A DNA stretch of 64,000 nucleotides from Candidatus Nomurabacteria bacterium RIFCSPLOWO2_12_FULL_40_42 (GCA_001786195.1 MFVS01000008.1:21057-85056), one strand, 5' to 3'. Counted from the first letter of the stretch, positions 7,520 to 43,588 are shown. Numbers and translations: made by a program. Notes: generated by a model not told the origin, from the sequence alone.

Positions 7520-7648
7520 CCCGTTAGAGATAGGAAATCTTTAGATTTCCGTTCCCTTAATTATTATTAATATCTTATTTAAGTTTAACATTATTTTTTA
7601 CTTCTATTTTAGTTTTTAACTATTTGATCTCTAACGGGAGTCATTGTA

Positions 7649-8227: not shown

Positions 8228-10813
8228 TTAAGGATGTGGAGGGTGTGGAGGATGTTCAGGAGGACGACCACCTCCAATAAATGCTTCTGCTAAAGCTGCA
8301 GCTGCTAAGTCTCTGCCAAATTCTGCTCCTGGCGTATGTACGTCAGTTTTTTCTTCTTTTGGTTTTACTCCCATTCTTATTGCATGAGCAGACTCTCTAC
8401 GCGCGGCTTTGTTCCAAGGCCAGGCAAATGAATTTTCAATATCATTGGCAAATGCTCTTATTCTTTTCTCTCCAACTTCTTTTACCTTATGTTGAAGATC
8501 TGGAATTATTTTATCTTCAAGTTGATCCATTGATCTTCCGCCACCATGTTTGGCAGAAGCAAGTGCTGCCTTTGCTACTGCTGCTGCATTTTCCAATTCC
8601 GAAGCGTTGGAGGCTCCGGCTGTAATAGCTGCCAATGCCGCCGCCTCTGCTCTTTCCGCCTCTGCCTCTAATTCAGAGACCCTATTAACATCTCCTGTTG
8701 CCTTCTTTATCTTATCCTTGAATTCTTTTAACGTTGCCAGTTTATCATTTGCTGCTTTCTTAGCTGCAACTTTAGCAGGATCATTAACATCCATAGCCAT
8801 AGCCGATGCCAAAGTGTTTTGCTTAGCAGGATCGGTATCAGCCATTGCTCTTGCAGCACTTATGGCAGCTTCTCTAGTTGCAACCTTATTAGAATCAGTA
8901 GTATCTCTTGAATTTAAGTCACTTGCATTTTTTCTTGCCGACTCAATCTTTTTATTAAGTTGCTCAAGTTCGTGTGAACTTTCCAAGGAGAGGGCCTGAA
9001 TCGCGTCTTCAGCTGCATTTAATTCCTGTTTCTCTTTTTCGCCTTCCTTGGTTTTAAGTCCTGCAGCTCTCTTCTTTCTCTTTTCGTCTCGTCCCTTCAA
9101 ATCAGCCATGTATCCACCCTCTTCCGTTGAAAGGTATTTTCCTCCTCCTAAGTTGACCCCGGTTATTTTAGATACAGCACCAAAAGCTCCGCCAAACGCA
9201 CCCTTTCTTATATCAAAACTCGAACCCGCAAATCCTCCCTTGCCATCATCTCCACCTGCGATAGTTCTTCCCATACTAGCCAAACGTCTCTGGGCCCAAT
9301 TGCCCTTTGTTTCCCAATCTTGCATCTTTGTACTGTCAAAAACTTTTTTACCTAAATGCCCAGCAGTTCCCTGCAGGACTTTGGCCCCAACCATCATCGT
9401 TCCGCCGGTCGCTGCGCCGATGGCAAGTCCGGTGACCACCTTACCAATTCCTGATGCTATCTCTGCAATTTTTCCTCCTGCCGCTTTAGCAAAGTGGATC
9501 GCTTTGAGAAGCAGAAACATGCTTATTAATGCCGGCAATATTAAAGACAATATATACGGGATAAATCCTTCACCAGTCAGAAGTTTCATTTTCGAATATT
9601 CCTTCAATAACATAAATATCAAATACATAAAAAACATAAAAACTGGAGCCATAAAAGACATTTTAATCAAACGTTTATGCCAGGCGTTCCAGCCCAGATA
9701 TTCCACACCTTGAAGTGCCGGTAAGGCGAAAGACATAAAAGCGAAAGGGGCAAAAATGATCAAAGCCCAAAGTTCGAGCAACCTGCCCAAAAATGCGGCT
9801 CCGGCGACGAAAAAAGCGAAGGCAGCAAAGAACATGATAGATCCAGAGATGATCATTAATCCAAGTGTCAACCCGAAAGGAAGGTTTTCTTTTGATTCTG
9901 TTTTTTCGCCTAATACCGTTATTGTTTTCAGTTTTTTAAGTGTAGGAAAGTCTACCAGCTTAGTAGGGTTAAATGCCTCAACTATCTCGCCAGATATATC
10001 TTTTTCTGTACTGCCTGCAGATTGATCATACACTTTTTGTCTTCCTGGGTTAACTTTCAGTTTATTATAGAAAACCAAAGCCAGAATATTAGAAGAATCT
10101 ATAACCACTTTTGTGAAAAACATTGAAAAGTTTATAAGTAAAGCCATGATTATTACCCAAACTACCGCCTTTTTAGTTTCATGTCCTATCCCTAAAATTG
10201 TTTGAATCGCTACATAAAGTAAAATAAGGATGAAAAAAATATTAGAAAGATCACGCACTACAGCCCAAGCGCTAGATACGAAACCCGAGTCGGTCAAGAC
10301 CGCTAGCTTATTTATCCCAACAGACACCATGGCATTAAAGAAGTTTGCAGACAATATAAGCAGTAAATTTGGGAGTTGGAAGTAAGTGTAGTAAACAATC
10401 CATAAAAAACATCCCTTCACAAGTTGAGATAAATCAAAAGTAGCTCCGCAACCGTTATTAATTTCTCCTCTAAATGTATCAGCTTCTGTTTTTGGTGTTG
10501 TTCCTGTCGCCCCTGCTGCTAGGGTTGCTGGTGTTGCTGGCGCAGGATTGCTAGGGCTGTATGGAGTAAAAATACCTATACCACGACAGTTCTCTGGAGT
10601 GGAGGGGAAAGGTGCTATGTATGTTATTCCACTCGTGCGCTGACAAGTTCCCGTTGCTACCACAGGTGTTGGTGTAGGTGCTGGTTGCGCCTCCACTTGT
10701 TTCCCTCCCGGCCCAAAAAGTCCGACGAGGATAAGCAGTATCAATCCCGTTAGAAGCAATTTACGAATAGTTGGGGATTTTGTTGTATTTCGTGTTAAAT
10801 TATTTTGTGACAT
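8228..10813 (-). CDS. VirB6/TrbL-like polytopic membrane protein with long Ala/Lys-rich coiled-coil tail
   Basis: 861 aa. Signal peptide, Pro/Thr-rich linker, at least 6 predicted TM helices in the middle, then a C-terminal coiled-coil region ending in PPEHPPHPPHP. Heads the T4SS-like operon. Confidence 0.45.
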   Translation of the reverse strand: MSQNNLTRNTTKSPTIRKLLLTGLILLILVGLFGPGGKQVEAQPAPTPTPVVATGTCQRTSGITYIAPFPSTPENCRGIGIFTPYSPSNPAPATPATLAAGATGTTPKTEADTFRGEINNGCGATFDLSQLVKGCFLWIVYYTYFQLPNLLLILSANFFNAMVSVGINKLAVLTDSGFVSSAWAVVRDLSNIFFILILLYVAIQTILGIGHETKKAVVWVIIMALLINFSMFFTKVVIDSSNILALVFYNKLKVNPGRQKVYDQSAGSTEKDISGEIVEAFNPTKLVDFPTLKKLKTITVLGEKTESKENLPFGLTLGLMIISGSIMFFAAFAFFVAGAAFLGRLLELWALIIFAPFAFMSFALPALQGVEYLGWNAWHKRLIKMSFMAPVFMFFMYLIFMLLKEYSKMKLLTGEGFIPYILSLILPALISMFLLLKAIHFAKAAGGKIAEIASGIGKVVTGLAIGAATGGTMMVGAKVLQGTAGHLGKKVFDSTKMQDWETKGNWAQRRLASMGRTIAGGDDGKGGFAGSSFDIRKGAFGGAFGAVSKITGVNLGGGKYLSTEEGGYMADLKGRDEKRKKRAAGLKTKEGEKEKQELNAAEDAIQALSLESSHELEQLNKKIESARKNASDLNSRDTTDSNKVATREAAISAARAMADTDPAKQNTLASAMAMDVNDPAKVAAKKAANDKLATLKEFKDKIKKATGDVNRVSELEAEAERAEAAALAAITAGASNASELENAAAVAKAALASAKHGGGRSMDQLEDKIIPDLQHKVKEVGEKRIRAFANDIENSFAWPWNKAARRESAHAIRMGVKPKEEKTDVHTPGAEFGRDLAAAALAEAFIGGGRPPEHPPHPPHP

Positions 10814-37556: not shown

Positions 37557-38066
37557 ATGAAAATTATAAAATTGAAAATTAAAAATTTTAAAAAAGGCTA
37601 CGCGATTCTCGAACTACTTTTTTATATTTCTTTTTTTACAGTTCTCGCCTTGGTGGTGATCAATGCCATGATAGCGATGGCGAAGTCCTTTCGGGAAACG
37701 GCGATTTATGCGGAATTGGACCAAAGCGCAAATATTATGGAGCGCATGTCTCGAGAAATCAGGCAAGCTAACAGTATCAGTTCAATCAGTCCAACTAACT
37801 TGATTTTAAATACTAAAGATGAGGATGATAATGACAAAACAGTGGAATTTAAATTTGTTAGTCCCAATATCCAGTTTTGGAATGACGGCAGCAATGTCGG
37901 AGATTTAAATTCACCTAAGATAATTGTCACTGGACTTACTTTTACGGAGATAACGACTGCTAAAGGAAAAGCGGTGAAAATAGTTCTTTCGATCCGTTCC
38001 GTGAATGACAGTTTGAGTCGCACAGTCGATTTTTATGATACCATTGTGCTTCGAGGTAGCTATTAA
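37557..38066 (+). CDS. minor pilin/pseudopilin
   Basis: ...NFKKG|YAILELLFYISFFTVLALVV prepilin-like N-terminus. Confidence 0.55.
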   Translation: MKIIKLKIKNFKKGYAILELLFYISFFTVLALVVINAMIAMAKSFRETAIYAELDQSANIMERMSREIRQANSISSISPTNLILNTKDEDDNDKTVEFKFVSPNIQFWNDGSNVGDLNSPKIIVTGLTFTEITTAKGKAVKIVLSIRSVNDSLSRTVDFYDTIVLRGSY

Positions 38067-38067
38067 G

Positions 38068-39318
38068 ATGAAAAATAATTTTAAAAAAATTAAAAAAAAT
38101 GGTGGCGCGGCGATGCTTATCTCCGTAATTTTCTTCTTGTTTATCTCCCTGGCTATAATTTCCGGGCTGGTGGGCCCGACTCTGCGGGAATTTCGAAATG
38201 CCGATATTAATTTAAAATCCAAACAGTCATATTTCTTGGCAGAGTCGGGAGTCGAGGATGCTTTTTATAGGATTAAAAATAATATGGCAATTGGAAGTAG
38301 CGAAAGTCTTACTCTAAGTTCCAACCAAGTCACTACCGCAATTACCAATGTTTCAGGCGGTGGCAAAAATATCACTTCTCTAGGCGATGTCTTAAATTAT
38401 GAACGCAAGATTTCTGTATCGTTGATCCCGGGCGAGGGTGTTTCGTTTAATTACGGAATGCAAATAGGGAATGGCGGATTGACGATGACAAATCATGCAA
38501 GAATAAATGGGAACGTGTATGTAAATGATGATGTTACAGGCGTAAACGATGCGCGGGTGACAGGCACCGCCATAGCCACTGGCACAATCAGCGGTATGGA
38601 TATCGGGGAGTTCGGGGTCGGCAATGCCTGGGCGCACACTGTAAATAATTCCAACATTGCCGGCAGTTTATACTGTCAAACAGGCAGCGGGAACAATAAA
38701 AGCTGCAATACATCGCAGGGAGATCCGGCCATGATTGATTTTCCCATTTCCGATGAACAAATCCGATCATGGAAAGATGAAGCACTCACCGGCGGAACAC
38801 AGACTGGAAATGTTAATTTGTCCGGAGGAGATACTATGTCGATTGGTCCCCGAAAAGTAGTCGGCAATTTAAATTTAAGCAATAACGGCACAACTCTCAC
38901 AGTTTTGGGTACGCTGTGGGTGATTGGAAATATTAGTTTATCAAATGAGTCGCAAATCAGGCTTTCCAGTTTTTACGGAGGAGGTAGTGGAGTTATTATT
39001 GCTGACGGAACTATTTCCATGTCAAATGATTCTTCTTTGGCGGGTTCAGGAACTACCGGTAGTTACCTAATGGCAGTTACCACTTCCACGTCAGCTTCAG
39101 CAATTAATCTATCAAATAATGCCACAACCACTATTCTTGTTGCTCCGTACGGAAAAATAAGTTTTTCCAATCATGCCTCGGTGAAAGAAGTGATAGCGAG
39201 AGCCGTGGATATTTCAAATGATGCAACTCTTACCTATGAATCTGGCTTAATTAACGTTAATTTTACAAGCGGCCCATCAGGTGGCTATAATATCTCTAGC
39301 TGGAAGGAGGCAAAGTAA
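38068..39318 (+). CDS. large minor-pilin-like/pilus-associated protein
   Basis: Start at ATG 38068 (MKNNFKKIKKNGGAAMLISVIFFLFISLAIISGLV: N-terminal TM). Thr/Ser/Gly/Asn-rich beta-rich remainder. Last gene of the pilin set. Confidence 0.45.
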   Translation: MKNNFKKIKKNGGAAMLISVIFFLFISLAIISGLVGPTLREFRNADINLKSKQSYFLAESGVEDAFYRIKNNMAIGSSESLTLSSNQVTTAITNVSGGGKNITSLGDVLNYERKISVSLIPGEGVSFNYGMQIGNGGLTMTNHARINGNVYVNDDVTGVNDARVTGTAIATGTISGMDIGEFGVGNAWAHTVNNSNIAGSLYCQTGSGNNKSCNTSQGDPAMIDFPISDEQIRSWKDEALTGGTQTGNVNLSGGDTMSIGPRKVVGNLNLSNNGTTLTVLGTLWVIGNISLSNESQIRLSSFYGGGSGVIIADGTISMSNDSSLAGSGTTGSYLMAVTTSTSASAINLSNNATTTILVAPYGKISFSNHASVKEVIARAVDISNDATLTYESGLINVNFTSGPSGGYNISSWKEAK

Positions 39319-39339: not shown

Positions 39340-40104
39340 ATGAAGAAGATAATTATCGGCAATTGGAAAATGAATCCGCCCACGCTCAAAGAAGCGGAGC
39401 AGTTGTTTTCAGTTCTAGCCAAAGGCGCCTCTTCCAGCAAAAAAACAGAAATTGTGATCTGTCCGCCGTTTGTCTACTTAGAAAAATTGAGTAAAATTCG
39501 AACTAGCAAAATAAAACTTGGGGCCCAGGATGCTTTTTATGAAGAGGTGGGGGCTTTCACTGGAGAAATTTCCGGAGAGATGCTTGATAACCTCCGCGTT
39601 AAATATGTAATTTTGGGCCACTCGGAAAGGCGGGCACTCGGAGAGACCAATGAAATGGTGAATCAAAAAATTAAAGCGGTACTTGCGGCGGGATTGATAC
39701 CGATTCTCTGTGTCGGAGAAACTGCGCGCGACGAAAGCCATGATTATTTTAATCTGGTCAAAATACAGCTCGAGGAATGCCTGGCCGGAGTTAAAAAAAC
39801 TTTTATTTCCAAAATAATTATTGCTTATGAACCCGTCTGGGCGATTTCTACTACGCCCAATCGCAAAGACGCAACTTCGGCTGATTCTCTGGAGATGGCC
39901 ATTTTTTTCAAGAAAATTCTCTCGGACAAATTTGGCCGCGAGGCGTCCCGCGGGAGAATTATTTACGGCGGCTCGGTGAGTGGAAAAGATGCCGGCGATT
40001 TTCTGCAAAACGGCGGCGTGGACGGGCTCCTGCCTGGCCGCGCCAGCTTGGATGCCAAGAAGTTTGTGGAGATTATAAAGATATGCGAAGTATTAAGCAA
40101 ATAG
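39340..40104 (+). CDS. tpiA: triosephosphate isomerase
   Basis: IIGNWKMNPP...ILGHSERR...AYEPVWAIST...GGSV are TPI signatures. Confidence 0.9.
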   Translation: MKKIIIGNWKMNPPTLKEAEQLFSVLAKGASSSKKTEIVICPPFVYLEKLSKIRTSKIKLGAQDAFYEEVGAFTGEISGEMLDNLRVKYVILGHSERRALGETNEMVNQKIKAVLAAGLIPILCVGETARDESHDYFNLVKIQLEECLAGVKKTFISKIIIAYEPVWAISTTPNRKDATSADSLEMAIFFKKILSDKFGREASRGRIIYGGSVSGKDAGDFLQNGGVDGLLPGRASLDAKKFVEIIKICEVLSK

Positions 40105-41147
40105 AAAATATTGAAGGTAAAACCGTGCTTCTGCGTGTAGATTTTAACGTGCCGATTAAAAATGGAAAAGTCGAAGATGATTTTCGGATAATTAAATCCC
40201 TACCCACGATAAGTTTTGTATTAGAAAAAGGTGCGAAAATTGTTTTAATTACTCATTTGGGTAAAGATGGGAGTGATAGTTTGGAGCCGGTTATTAAGCG
40301 TTTTTGGGAAGTAGCTAAGTTTCCAAAAGACAAAATAGAATTTTATGAAAATGTGCGAAAATTTCCTGGAGAAGAAAAAAATGACCCTAGTTTTGCTAAA
40401 AAACTAGCCGCCTTGGGCGATATTTATGTTAATGATGCTTTTCCCGTTTCTCACCGCCCCCACGCATCTATCGTTGGCATTCCGAAATATTTACCCTCTT
40501 ACGCCGGGCTTCAACTCGAGGAAGAAGTAAAAAATTTATCTCGCGCTTTTCAAAAACCAGAGCATCCATTTTTATTTATCCTGGGCGGAGCCAAATTTTC
40601 CACCAAAATTCCCTTAATAGAAAAATATTTAGAACTAGCCGACCAGGTTTTTATCGGCGGTGCTTTAGCGAATGATTTTTTAAAGGCCACCGGCTACGAA
40701 GTGGGGAAGTCTCTAGTGGACGACACGAATTATGGCATTGAAAAAGTATTAAAGAATAAAAAGTTAATTTTACCGGTTGATGTTGTAGTGAAATCCGGTG
40801 AAATTTTAATAAACAAAAAGTCGGATGAGGTCGGTAAAGAGGAAAATATTTTAGATATTGGCTCGGAAACAGTAAAAAATCTGGCATCACTTATCCAAGA
40901 TTCAAAGTTTATTCTTTGGAACGGGCCTCTCGGCAAATATGAAGAAGGCGGGGGAAATTCTACTAAAGAAATATTAAAATTAGTCGCAGATTCCAAAGCT
41001 CTTAGTATTATCGGGGGAGGAGATACAGTAGCTTTGATATCAGAAATGAATATGGAAGATAAATTTTCATCTGTCTCTACTGGCGGTGGCGCTACTCTTG
41101 AATTTCTCGCCAATGGCACTCTGCCAGGCATCAAAGCGCTTGAGTGA
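40083..41147 (+). CDS. pgk: phosphoglycerate kinase (short form)
   Basis: VLLRVDFNVPIKNGKVEDDFRI N-terminal signature. GGGDT...GGGATLEFL C-terminal motifs. 354 aa. Confidence 0.88.
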   Translation: MRSIKQIENIEGKTVLLRVDFNVPIKNGKVEDDFRIIKSLPTISFVLEKGAKIVLITHLGKDGSDSLEPVIKRFWEVAKFPKDKIEFYENVRKFPGEEKNDPSFAKKLAALGDIYVNDAFPVSHRPHASIVGIPKYLPSYAGLQLEEEVKNLSRAFQKPEHPFLFILGGAKFSTKIPLIEKYLELADQVFIGGALANDFLKATGYEVGKSLVDDTNYGIEKVLKNKKLILPVDVVVKSGEILINKKSDEVGKEENILDIGSETVKNLASLIQDSKFILWNGPLGKYEEGGGNSTKEILKLVADSKALSIIGGGDTVALISEMNMEDKFSSVSTGGGATLEFLANGTLPGIKALE

Positions 41148-41180
41148 TTTAAGCTTTTATTTATAAGGGTTTTTCTGGTA

Positions 41181-41209
41181 TTGACATAGAGGGTTTTTGG
41201 GTGTATAAT
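41181..41209 (+). promoter_or_regulatory. perfect-consensus sigma70 promoter driving the DGR target gene
   Basis: TTGACA, 17-nt spacer, TATAAT, about 95 nt upstream of the target ORF start. Confidence 0.6.
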
Positions 41210-41304
41210 TTAAAGGTATACAAACGGCAGAAATCTCTGCAACCTGTCCGAGGCATTCGGAATATACCTGTGAGCAACGGGTGAATGTTCAATGAAAAGA
41301 AAGG

Positions 41305-41700
41305 TTGGGTAAAATCGTGAGTAGCGAAAAAATTGTCGACGGAGCCACTGGGGTGAAGGTCTATCTCAGGCGGTTGTTTGCGGACGAGACGATAACTTAT
41401 GGCGATGTGAAAGTTGTCATTTTCGAACTCGTTCAAAATGGCAATTTCCAGAAAATGTTTGGAGAGCTCGGCGAAAAGCGCCGATGTTGGAAAAACAAGG
41501 AGGAGGCGCTGGCTTTCGCCGAGCAAAATACGGAAAAGCTCGGTCCCAACAGCAACTTCTTCGAGCTTGAAGGCGGCTTCGTTGCCAACGTGAACCTCGA
41601 CGGGGACGGTCAGCCCTATGTGAACTTCGTGAGCCCGCTTTCGAACGACTCCGCTTGGTACGCCGGGTTTCAGCCTCGAGTGTTCTACCCGCAACAGTAA
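41305..41700 (+). CDS. DGR target (variable) protein, small, VR at C-terminus
   Basis: 131 aa ORF; start is either TTG 41305 or GTG 41317. Markedly GC-rich relative to its surroundings. Its last 40 codons are the variable repeat. Followed by a hairpin plus T-tract at 41727-41790. Confidence 0.6.
   Translation: MGKIVSSEKIVDGATGVKVYLRRLFADETITYGDVKVVIFELVQNGNFQKMFGELGEKRRCWKNKEEALAFAEQNTEKLGPNSNFFELEGGFVANVNLDGDGQPYVNFVSPLSNDSAWYAGFQPRVFYPQQ
41577..41697 (+). repeat. DGR variable repeat (VR)
   Basis: 119-bp repeat pairing with 42068-42186. 10 substitutions, 9 of them where the template repeat has A (template AAC codons become TTC/AGC/TCC/TAC here). Confidence 0.8.
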
Positions 41701-42067
41701 CTTGGTTACTCGTTGCAAAAAATCACAACCGTTCTCAACCGGAAAAATCGCGTGGAGGACGGTTTTTCTTTTGCCACTTTGAAACTTTTTCTCTTTGACC
41801 CTTTGTTTTTATATTTTTGATATACTGGTTATGTAATCGGGAAATGCTTACGGCTAAGGCTCTAAGCCATGATTATTTAAAAACGAGTTTGAGAATTTTG
41901 CCGGAAATTTTTCTTGCGAAAGAGTGAATTCTTTTTTAAAAACAAAAAAACATAAAAGTTGGTGCGATGAACTCGTAGGCTTCTACGCCTCAAATAATAT
42001 ACAGCACGATCTTTGGTATTAAATTATGCTCAGATCGGCAGTGCCATAGATGGTTCATCGCACAATT

Positions 42068-42188
42068 CTTCGTTGCCAACGTGAACCTCGACGGGGACGG
42101 TCAGCCCTATGTGAACAACGTGAACCCGCTTTCGAACGACAACACTTGGAACGCCGAGTTTCAGCGTCGAGTGTTCTACCCGAAACTA
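42068..42188 (+). repeat. DGR template repeat (TR)
   Basis: Non-coding copy of the VR with adenines at the variable positions (5 AAC codons in the VR reading frame). Preceded by a TTGACC...TATACT promoter-like sequence at about 41795-41830. Confidence 0.8.
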
Positions 42189-42201
42189 TTAAGTTTCTCC
42201 T

Positions 42202-42595
42202 TCATTTATGTGGAGGAGTTTTCTTTTCGAGACCTTTCTTCCAACCACCCAGCATTCTGCCTATTTCCTGCAAGTGTTCGGATAGAGCAGAATACTTTTC
42301 ATTCGGGATGCATTTATTTCCCCAAGCTATCTGCAGAAAGAATTTTATGCCGTCGAGTTTGGAAATCGCGATGATGAGACGAGGTATTTTAGTTTCCGGC
42401 GGGAGATATATTGAAACAAAAATATTTTCCAAAAGGCCGAGGAAATAATCTTCTATCTTTCCACCTAGGGTGTAGCGGTGCGCCTTTGGAAAATCATTGT
42501 ATATTTTAAACCAAAGAGAATAGGCTGTTTTTGTCTTTAAAAGCGCTGAAGGCGCTGCGGGGGGGGGTCCCGGAAATATGAAACAATTTATTCAT
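42202..42595 (-). pseudogene. avd: Avd (accessory variability determinant; four-helix-bundle family), antisense to the TR/RT, apparently frameshifted
   Basis: Minus-strand frame encodes ...YSLWFKIYNDFPKAHRYTLGGKIEDYFLGLLENIFVSIYLPPETKIPRLIIAISKLDGIKFFLQIAWGNKCIPNEKYSALSEHLQEIGRMLGGWKKGLEKK, matching the TIGR02436/Avd consensus. There is no in-frame ATG/GTG/TTG upstream. ATG 42593-42595 is in the -1 frame and terminates at 42506, implying a frameshift near the A5/G9 homopolymers. Confidence 0.5.
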
Positions 42596-43588
42596 ACTTA
42601 CGATAGTACCATAACAATAGAAAAACTGCTCAAGGCATGGCAGGAATTCGTGCGCGACAAGAAAAACAAAAAAGATGTGATTTTATTCCAGGCCAAGCTG
42701 ATGGATAACATATTCGATCTTTTTAATGATCTTAAAAACAAAACTTACAAGCACGGCGGTTATATCGCTTTTAATATATCAGATCCTAAACCTAGGCAAA
42801 TACACAAGGCAACAGTTCGAGATAGGTTGCTGCATCATTTGATATATCGAGAACTTTACGAACATTTTAATTCAAAATTTATCCACGACTCATATTCCTG
42901 CCGATTAAACAAAGGAACCCACAAAGCGATCAACAGATTCCGCGATTTTTTCCGAAAAGTTTCCAAAAATCACGCAAAGACGTGCTTTGTTCTCAAGTGC
43001 GATATCAAGAAATTCTTTGCCAACATTGATCATCAAATTTTAAAGCAAATTTTAGAAAAACACATCGAAGACAAAAATATTATCTGGCTTCTTTCACAAG
43101 TTATAAATAGTTTTTATACTCAACTAAATACTAAAAACTCTGCGATAGCAGAAAGTTTAGTAAAAGGTTTGCCATTAGGGAATCTAACTTCCCAACTTCT
43201 GGTAAATGTTTACATGAATGAATTTGACCAGTTTATGAAAAGAGAATTGAAAGTAAGGTATTATATACGATACGCAGACGATTTTGTAATATTGAGTGAT
43301 AATAAAAATTATCTTGAAGACTTACTTCTAAAGGTCTCTAGCTTCTTAGAAAAAGAATTAAAATTACAATTACACCCAGACAAAGTTTTTATGAAAACTT
43401 TCGCTTCCGGTGTTGATTTTCTAGGCTGGGTACATTTTTCAAAGTATAGAGTTTTGAGGACGAGTACAAAAAGAAAGATGTTGAGGAATCTTGAAAAAAA
43501 TTTTAAAGAAGAGTCACGACAGTCATATTTAGGAATGTTGAAACACGGGAATGCTTATAAGCTCAAAAGTGAGATTGAAAACTTATAA
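42578..43588 (+). CDS. DGR reverse transcriptase
   Basis: 336 aa. Motif 2 VLKCDIKKFFANIDHQIL. Motif 4 GLPLGNLTSQLLVNVYM, the DGR-diagnostic [ILV]GxxxSQ in place of QGxxSP. Motif 5 RYADDFVIL. Confidence 0.9.
   Translation: MKQFIHTYDSTITIEKLLKAWQEFVRDKKNKKDVILFQAKLMDNIFDLFNDLKNKTYKHGGYIAFNISDPKPRQIHKATVRDRLLHHLIYRELYEHFNSKFIHDSYSCRLNKGTHKAINRFRDFFRKVSKNHAKTCFVLKCDIKKFFANIDHQILKQILEKHIEDKNIIWLLSQVINSFYTQLNTKNSAIAESLVKGLPLGNLTSQLLVNVYMNEFDQFMKRELKVRYYIRYADDFVILSDNKNYLEDLLLKVSSFLEKELKLQLHPDKVFMKTFASGVDFLGWVHFSKYRVLRTSTKRKMLRNLEKNFKEESRQSYLGMLKHGNAYKLKSEIENL

Follow-up and report, generated by a model that had tools for sequence, protein, structure and literature searches.

Among the targets of diversity-generating retroelements (DGRs) surveyed in Wu 2018 (PMC5758913), lengths run from 44 to 2697 aa, and at the lower end the protein is nothing but a lectin or Ig fold. 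For the candidate phyla radiation (CPR) set of that survey, the text gives the B3 architecture in 90% of systems and variable repeat classes, UVR1-6, without an assigned fold. CPR clade-2 targets are typically without transmembrane (TM) helices or known domains, 'as previously reported', according to Roux 2021, in which the non-membrane nature of CPR targets is unsettled and new lectin-fold variants in CPR are predicted (PMC8144416). Cytoplasmic DGR targets have also been described in multicellular bacteria (PMC10907252). Here we analysed a stretch of 64,000 nt (hereafter the window) from Candidatus Nomurabacteria bacterium RIFCSPLOWO2_12_FULL_40_42 (MFVS01000008.1:21057-85056), a CPR metagenome-assembled genome (MAG) from the Rifle aquifer, with a focus on the open reading frame (ORF) at 41305..41700 on the plus strand. 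The data showed that this ORF is a genuine DGR target, namely the variable protein of a chromosomal DGR, and OGI70269.1 and related entries match its 131-aa product with 100% identity. A first, sequence-only reading had called a target so small and without export signal unusual; the published size range, the typical CPR targets and the described cytoplasmic targets speak otherwise. The finding is therefore known in outline and is not a surprise to DGR specialists.

The locus shares with the CPR DGRs of these surveys (Roux 2021 clade 2 and Wu 2018) a groundwater CPR host, a C-terminal variable repeat (VR) and a target without TM helix, signal or known domain, and in those DGRs, as in the window, the arrangement of the accessory variability determinant (avd) and the template repeat (TR) differs from that of phage BPP-1. 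The source, a Rifle RIFCSP MAG, belongs to a groundwater CPR dataset of the kind that the surveys analysed. Mtd of phage BPP-1 (about 380 aa), TvpA of Treponema denticola, AvpA of Nanoarchaeota and TaqVP of Thermus aquaticus also carry the VR at or near the C-terminus, with AAY codons in the TR and an invariant aromatic residue inside the VR. The window protein is far smaller, with 127 aa compared with 277 residues in the TvpA chain (2y3c_A) and 256 aa in AvpA, and it is unlike the solved lectin-fold targets in having no inserts or extra domains, no detectable sequence similarity to them and a weak fold match. The cytoplasmic targets of cyanobacteria and multicellular bacteria, in which a lectin domain is fused to a STAND NTPase, a kinase or a MoxR-type system, likewise have no export signal and a C-terminal lectin-like VR (PMC10907252). 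In contrast to these large multidomain sensors with a transducer, the window target consists of the binding domain by itself; it has neither an effector nor an NTPase, and no neighbouring gene is conserved.

Template and variable repeats of the cassette

The cassette follows tpiA and pgk (ending at 41147) in the order promoter, target(+), TR(+), avd(-) and reverse transcriptase (RT, +). Three other CPR loci (L009, L011 and L013) carry the identical order of target, TR, avd(-) and RT, and we infer that the arrangement in the window corresponds to the 'B3' architecture of Wu 2018. The VR and TR form a 118-bp repeat with an offset of 491 (blastn E 1.4e-40), and the VR ends the ORF, in agreement with its earlier placement at the extreme C-terminus of the protein (...NDSAWYAGFQPRVFYPQQ*). 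No other copy of the repeat and no second target of the TR were found by blastn in the 64-kb window.

Ten positions differ between VR and TR, and nine of them fall at TR adenines (41626, 41627, 41633, 41650, 41651, 41653, 41659, 41666 and 41692). Adenine makes up 29 of the 118 TR bases, which gives a binomial P of 2.5e-5 for at least 9 of 10 mismatches at A. All VR/TR mismatches are at TR adenines in L009 (27/27), L011 (21/21) and L013 (18/18), and L021 has 19 differences, of which 17 are at adenines and 2 are not. The count of ten differences with a single non-adenine change (TR G, VR C) had been given correctly before; its position, put at about 41674/42165, is 41675/42166. The codon concerned is CGT in the TR and CCT in the VR, whereas the TRs of L009, L011 and L013 all have CAT and their VRs have CGT, CCT and CAT, respectively; across the family it is variable (H/R/P/F/Y). 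In the simplest history, the ancestral TR would have had A, homing would have turned this A into C in the VR, and the TR itself would afterwards have changed from A to G without this being copied into the VR. The non-adenine change is therefore best read as a TR substitution rather than as misincorporation by the RT at G.

Towards the 3' end of the repeat, 41677-41691 (encoding RVFYP) is identical in VR and TR and forms a segment like the initiation of mutagenic homing (IMH) site. L011 and L021 both show the difference that comes next, VR C against TR A at 41692, and Gln is encoded at this place in nearly the whole family. It has the appearance of a fixed mark of the IMH/IMH* type rather than a product of mutagenesis, and with this reading eight clear A-to-N events are left, at 41626-41666. 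The hairpin that follows the target stop (Table 1) is kept in L021 and L009 with base changes that preserve pairing. It could be the terminator of the target gene, a post-IMH hairpin or both, a role in homing being suggested by analogy with BPP-1 (PMC5758913).

Table 1 Features of the DGR cassette, in positions of the window
Feature	Coordinates	Strand	Basis or remark
Sigma-70-type promoter of target gene, TTGACA-17-TATAAT	41181..41209	+	12/12 consensus matches; -10 region aligns with relatives
Structured 5' leader, four hairpins	41216..41327	+	13 distinct homologous leaders; covariation
DGR target gene, 127 aa, single lectin-like domain (tentative)	41317..41700	+	GTG start; TTG 41305 gives the 131-aa annotation
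VR, residues 88-127 of the 127-aa protein	41578..41695	+	Repeat comparison with TR
Inverted repeat and T-run (AACCGTTCTC...GAGGACGGTT TTTTCTTTT), 27 nt past target stop	41727..41764	+	Sequence
Extended -10-like element TTTTGATATACT	41815..41826	+	Kept in five DGR loci
Conserved structured RNA domain directly 5' of TR	41838..42068	+	Five-locus alignment, covariation
TR, 29 A in 118 nt, 8 AAC codons	42069..42186	+	Repeat comparison with VR
Hairpin and T-run right after TR, overlapping the avd stop region	42197..42218	+	Terminator-like
avd, without canonical start	42202..42579	-	PF22296, NF033474, phrog_3206
DGR RT, 336 aa, LGNLTSQ and YADD motifs	42578..43588	+	RVT_1, phrog_1423

Upstream of the target, pgk (40083-41147) adjoins the cassette, and in the Buchananbacteria locus L013 pgk (8577-9803) lies downstream of the RT; this shared neighbourhood could be a coincidence or a preferred insertion neighbourhood. 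At 37557-39318, 2-4 kb upstream, lie two genes whose products (169 aa, beginning with KKGYAILELLFYISFF..., and 427 aa) have N-termini of pilin-like or TM type.

Start codon, family and fold of the target protein

The sequence-only reading had estimated a protein of about 130 aa with a start at either TTG 41305, from which the ORF has 131 aa, or GTG 41317. All 13 distinct homologous leaders end with (A/G)TG AG(T/C) AA(C/T), encoding 'MSN', except that L016 has GTG GGT AAC ('MGN'), and the counterpart of these codons in the window is GTG 41317 AGT AGC. These leaders, first in four loci and then in 13, are more conserved than the coding sequence, and the 127-aa form (MSSEK..., P0008) has been gene-called on 63 contigs. 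Inspection for a ribosome-binding site revealed a single Shine-Dalgarno-like sequence, GAAAGG, which directly abuts TTG 41305. Because the homologous leaders all place the start at the MSN codons, we assign the translation start to GTG 41317 rather than TTG 41305, with a predicted product of 127 aa; the small size thus stands with a corrected start.

The possibility that the ORF is a 3' fragment of a longer gene, for example after an undetected frameshift, was examined. An in-frame TGA is present at 41293-41295 and there is no usable in-frame start upstream of the ORF, so the ORF is not the 3' part of a longer gene. The gap between pgk and the ORF is filled by the consensus promoter and the conserved leader, and the relatives begin at the same codon. 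The leader runs from about 41216 over about 100 nt, close to the 95 nt that had been proposed to follow a consensus promoter. An upstream coding extension was also considered, as the N-terminus of P0004 (...EYTCEQRVNV...) matches the in-frame translation of the window leader. It was rejected, since the conserved RNA leader explains the likeness and all 13 leaders put the start at the MSN codons; the extended call of P0004 is a spurious read-through of the leader.

After codon 5, the window protein is without about 35 residues that are found in its closest full-length relatives (L019, 162 aa; L021, 159 aa) and that form a helical module (...NVYERLWKLWAMICKMIMDGVRDPEKVAxxLQTIVD). A second lineage (L007, 115 aa) lost the N-terminal helical module independently. 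Searches for the family returned 7 clusters from the word-indexed protein search; an exhaustive profile search gave 696 representatives at a threshold of E<=1e-3, of which 144 reached <=1e-10, and 239 hits at E<=1e-5 came from the profile search of a 5.8-billion set. The 696 representatives are all small and all have a C-terminal VR-like end. The named matches in the 5.8-billion set are 'hypothetical proteins' of Uhr-, Buchanan-, Taylor-, Nealson-, Falkow- and Nomurabacteria. The family has a median length of 212 aa and a conserved core of about 100 C-terminal residues; the window protein is shorter because the N-terminal helical module was lost and the central insert is absent. Within its own family, the protein is unusual only in size, and by these comparisons it appears to be the minimal form of a CPR-wide family whose typical members have 200-225 aa with a central insert.

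Differences within two groups of sister clusters (P0004/14/15/16 and P0006/17/18) are confined to the VR, except for one P0017 residue and the tails of P0006/P0017 chimeras, and they affect codons that contain A in the TRs. This VR-only variation indicates active diversification in the Hainich aquifer. Some of the database proteins (P0010, P0012, P0006 and P0017; 90% clusters) are assembly chimeras in which the VR is joined to the TR; they run on into sequence downstream of the TR, and one reaches the C-terminus of the RT.

The target protein matched nothing in Pfam, NCBIfam, PADLOC, PHROGs or the PDB sequence profiles, the last giving no sequence-level link to any solved structure. No family member has a Pfam domain, and lectin and FGE models of Pfam did not match any of 100 relatives, which places them outside FGE-sulfatase, DUF1566 and Lectin_C. 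Structure prediction, which the sequence-only reading had proposed, gave a single confident domain: the AlphaFold2 model (118-sequence alignment; pLDDT 89.1, pTM 0.81) is confident for residues 17-131 and has nine secondary-structure elements, of which the VR supplies the last four strands and a loop. The last 40 residues, which are the VR, comprise two strands, a loop around an invariant Trp and the invariant final strand RVFYP. The invariant Trp and last strand parallel Mtd, TvpA and AvpA (PMC5006420). A full-length relative matches TvpA over 120 residues, and also an FGE paralogue, EgtB and PvdO, although this match is weak. The model weakly suggests a very divergent, insert-free C-type-lectin-like domain with a compact alpha/beta structure, with which the invariant Trp, the RVFYP strand and the AAC-rich TR agree. 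It is quite improbable that the scaffold is a new fold with a superficial resemblance to C-type lectin-like domains. Such a fold would agree with the failure of Foldseek to find a significant match in the PDB, with the missing profile matches to PDB and Pfam and with the CPR 'UVR' classes left unassigned in Wu 2018 (PMC5758913), but AvpA was also unpredictable from sequence and yet proved to have a lectin fold (PMC5006420).

Localisation of the protein and state of the retroelement

Hydropathy analysis of the target protein gave a highest Kyte-Doolittle 19-residue window of 0.84 and no hydrophobic stretch at the N-terminus. Consistent with the earlier view, no signal peptide, lipobox or TM helix is indicated by this check, which is not a dedicated predictor. 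The same C-terminal domain is found behind three kinds of N-terminus, namely the hydrophilic helical module in most relatives, a hydrophobic 19-mer, and a signal peptide in P0146; such variants were seen in P0225, P0187, P0212, P0237, P0146 and others. Since some relatives carry a hydrophobic segment or signal peptide, the binding domain itself is not intrinsically intracellular. From the absence of signals, a cytoplasmic location is plausible as the most economical reading of the window protein. The sequence-only reading was thus borne out as to the lack of signals, and its 'cytoplasmic' is softened by the relatives, about 20 of 271, that are anchored or signal-bearing.

Alternatively, the protein may be displayed on the cell surface although it has no classical signal, for example by way of a partner or a route specific to CPR, and may bind ligands of a host or of particles as classical DGR targets do. 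Homologous domains follow a hydrophobic 19-mer in about 20 relatives and a Sec-type signal peptide in P0146, membrane-anchored binders make up most of the cellular DGR targets (PMC8144416), and the pilin-like genes lie 2-4 kb upstream. However, the window protein and most family members have hydrophilic N-termini, the window copy is without the helical N-terminal module that might have served as a docking element, and no conserved partner gene stands beside the target. We consider a surface location unlikely.

The RT matches RVT_1 (1.8e-26) and phrog_1423 (8.5e-100), and its orthologues in L009, L011 and L013 sit in the cassettes in which 100% of mismatches are at adenines. Avd matches bAvd PF22296 (7e-14), phrog_3206 (5.8e-15) and NF033474 (1.3e-17, below the curated cutoff). 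The two genes are arranged back-to-back with overlapping start codons. At the avd start, ATA (42579-42577) stands where L009 has ATG (~7529-7531), the window reading ATA TTT CCG GGA and L009 ATG ATT CCC GGA; a stop lies five codons upstream of the ATA, and the next canonical start, TTG 42432, would yield 76 aa. L021 shares the ATA and has a VR diversified relative to its TR, so the ATA is old and apparently tolerated, which weakens the loss of the start as proof of inactivity. A frameshift in the G9 run (42559-42567) truncating avd was rejected, as the run encodes a conserved PGPPP in frame, as in L009, and an upstream minus-strand ATG was dismissed as the antisense of an RT His codon.

Every non-chimeric member of the 90% cluster has the same VR as the window, over more than 90 contigs, with no sign of current diversification. 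With the fixed VR, the TR substitution and the avd start, the cassette is possibly quiescent. Several leader-bearing family members have no RT within the fetched downstream DNA (2.5-9 kb). L001 is syntenic with L009 (DUF1003-Sua5-target-[avd-RT]-MurB-SIMPL-SecE-NusG) but has no TR, avd or RT: compared with L009 (6001-8573), L001-L005 (gene at L001 1509-1937) have kept the target and leader, and this protein is found unchanged on 6 contigs of several samples. A target can therefore outlive its retroelement.

These observations raise the alternative of a decaying DGR, in which homing is over and the target is an internally deleted remnant that is being lost or has taken on a fixed function. The deletion of about 35 aa compared with L019 and L021, the invariant VR, the avd ATA with its 76-aa alternative, the TR G that three relatives have as A and that has not overwritten the VR since, and the precedent of L001 would all fit. 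On the other side, ORF, promoter and leader have remained intact and are conserved, the full-length RT retains its catalytic motifs, and in an independent lineage with a still shorter target (L007, 115 aa) four sequences vary in the VR and nowhere else. In L021, 19 VR positions differ from the TR (17 at adenines) despite the same missing ATG, and consensus assemblies hide minority variants. Decay is on balance a doubtful explanation, though the strongest of the alternatives considered here.

We therefore favour, with somewhat better than even confidence, a DGR variable protein that is a minimal lectin-like form of the CPR family and a soluble intracellular binder. Weighing against this, besides the unvarying VR and the avd without a canonical start, are that only 9 of the 29 TR adenines differ in the VR, that one difference (41675/42166) is not at an adenine, and that a strongly hydrophobic 19-mer (Kyte-Doolittle 1.6-2.4) occupies residues 6-17 in about 20 of the 271 relatives and a Sec-type signal peptide is present in one, P0146. 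Moreover, the location was read from hydropathy.

RNA elements and proposed working of the locus

The 5' leader contains four hairpins, H1 (41227-41240), H2 (41247-41261), H3 (41265-41283) and H4 (41315-41327). H4 encloses the GTG start, and a GU-GAG(C/U)A-(A/G)C stem-loop (GU-GAGUA-AC) is common to H3 and H4. Relatives of the leader were found with a DNA pattern derived from it (helix 3 region). Among 13 distinct sequences, 98.9% of cells are paired, with 7 compensatory pairs compared with 2.4 in shuffles (0/500) and 0-2 in slid controls. The compensatory changes lie in helices 1, 2 and 4, including GUG...AAC versus AUG...AAU in helix 4, and helix 3 is invariant, partly because of the search pattern used. 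The motif turned up in 4 GTDB genomes and on 11 metagenome contigs, each time 21-29 nt upstream of a gene beginning with the MSN codons and, where present, the helical module. It is absent from the distant family members L006, L009, L011 and L013 and is restricted to a sub-clade, mostly Nomurabacteria; GTGAGYARC does not occur in the window apart from the two copies in the leader. In L018 (4562-5270; also L025), the leader motif precedes a 220-aa protein with the helical module twice and an unrelated C-terminal domain, and this 8-kb locus gave no match to RT, Avd or a VR-like sequence. We suspect, speculatively, that the leader is a protein-bound translational operator.

The second element, directly 5' of the TR, forms 70 pairs in 7 helices across 5 loci, with 95.7% of cells paired. 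It has 27 compensatory pairs compared with 11.1 in shuffles (0/500) and 2-7 in slid controls, in five sequences from which the structure itself was derived. The domain is conserved in cassettes of Nomura-, Uhr- and Buchananbacteria, the stretches that correspond to 41815-42068 of the window being L009 6745-7019, L011 6725-6967, L013 6700-6934 and L021 5527-5770 on the minus strand. The TTTTGATATACT box is a probable promoter of the TR RNA. This -10-like box before the domain and the hairpin with T-run after the TR suggest that the TR RNA is a transcript of its own, about 390 nt long, with the domain as its 5' part. The hairpin at 42197-42218 could end both the TR transcript and the convergent avd transcript. 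Structured non-coding RNA in the TR transcript is likewise known from RT-10 and other 'RT' RNA motifs (Weinberg 2017) and from the BPP-1 spacer (PMC5737381). Unlike the Rfam 'RT' motifs, the domain in the window has no Rfam match: neither it nor the leader matched Rfam 15 at E<=1 in 41100-42650 on both strands.

In the proposed working of the locus, the target gene would be transcribed from the consensus promoter with its structured leader and translated from GTG 41317 inside the small hairpin. By analogy with BPP-1, the separate TR RNA would be copied by an RT-Avd complex with random incorporation opposite adenines, and the cDNA would replace the VR up to the IMH-like 3' boundary. In this way, as many as 8 AAC codons and some 11 further codons with A could be recoded, giving about 10^16 possible sequences and an altered ligand-binding surface. 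Having no export signal, the protein would most likely act as a soluble intracellular binder. A bolder proposal is that the window holds the smallest working DGR scaffold, a lectin-like domain of about 110 aa serving as an intracellular diversifiable binder, that the twin GU-GAGUA-AC loops of the leader are a repressor operator and that the TR RNA domain of about 230 nt replaces, in CPR DGRs, the avd/spacer RNA elements of BPP-1; as a whole, we offer it tentatively and think it rather unlikely.

A small DGR target free of export signals is already in the literature and is not new. The leader and the TR 5' domain are side findings that may be new; these two RNA elements, the predicted fold and the family size are not mentioned in the parts of the Roux 2021 and Wu 2018 texts available to us. 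CPR are the lineages richest in DGRs. A 127-aa single-domain target with a confident model is a tractable case for structure, localisation and ligand fishing, and the two covarying RNA elements would give access to the regulation of CPR DGRs and their targets. The three kinds of N-terminus among the relatives suggest that one binding scaffold is deployed in different compartments.
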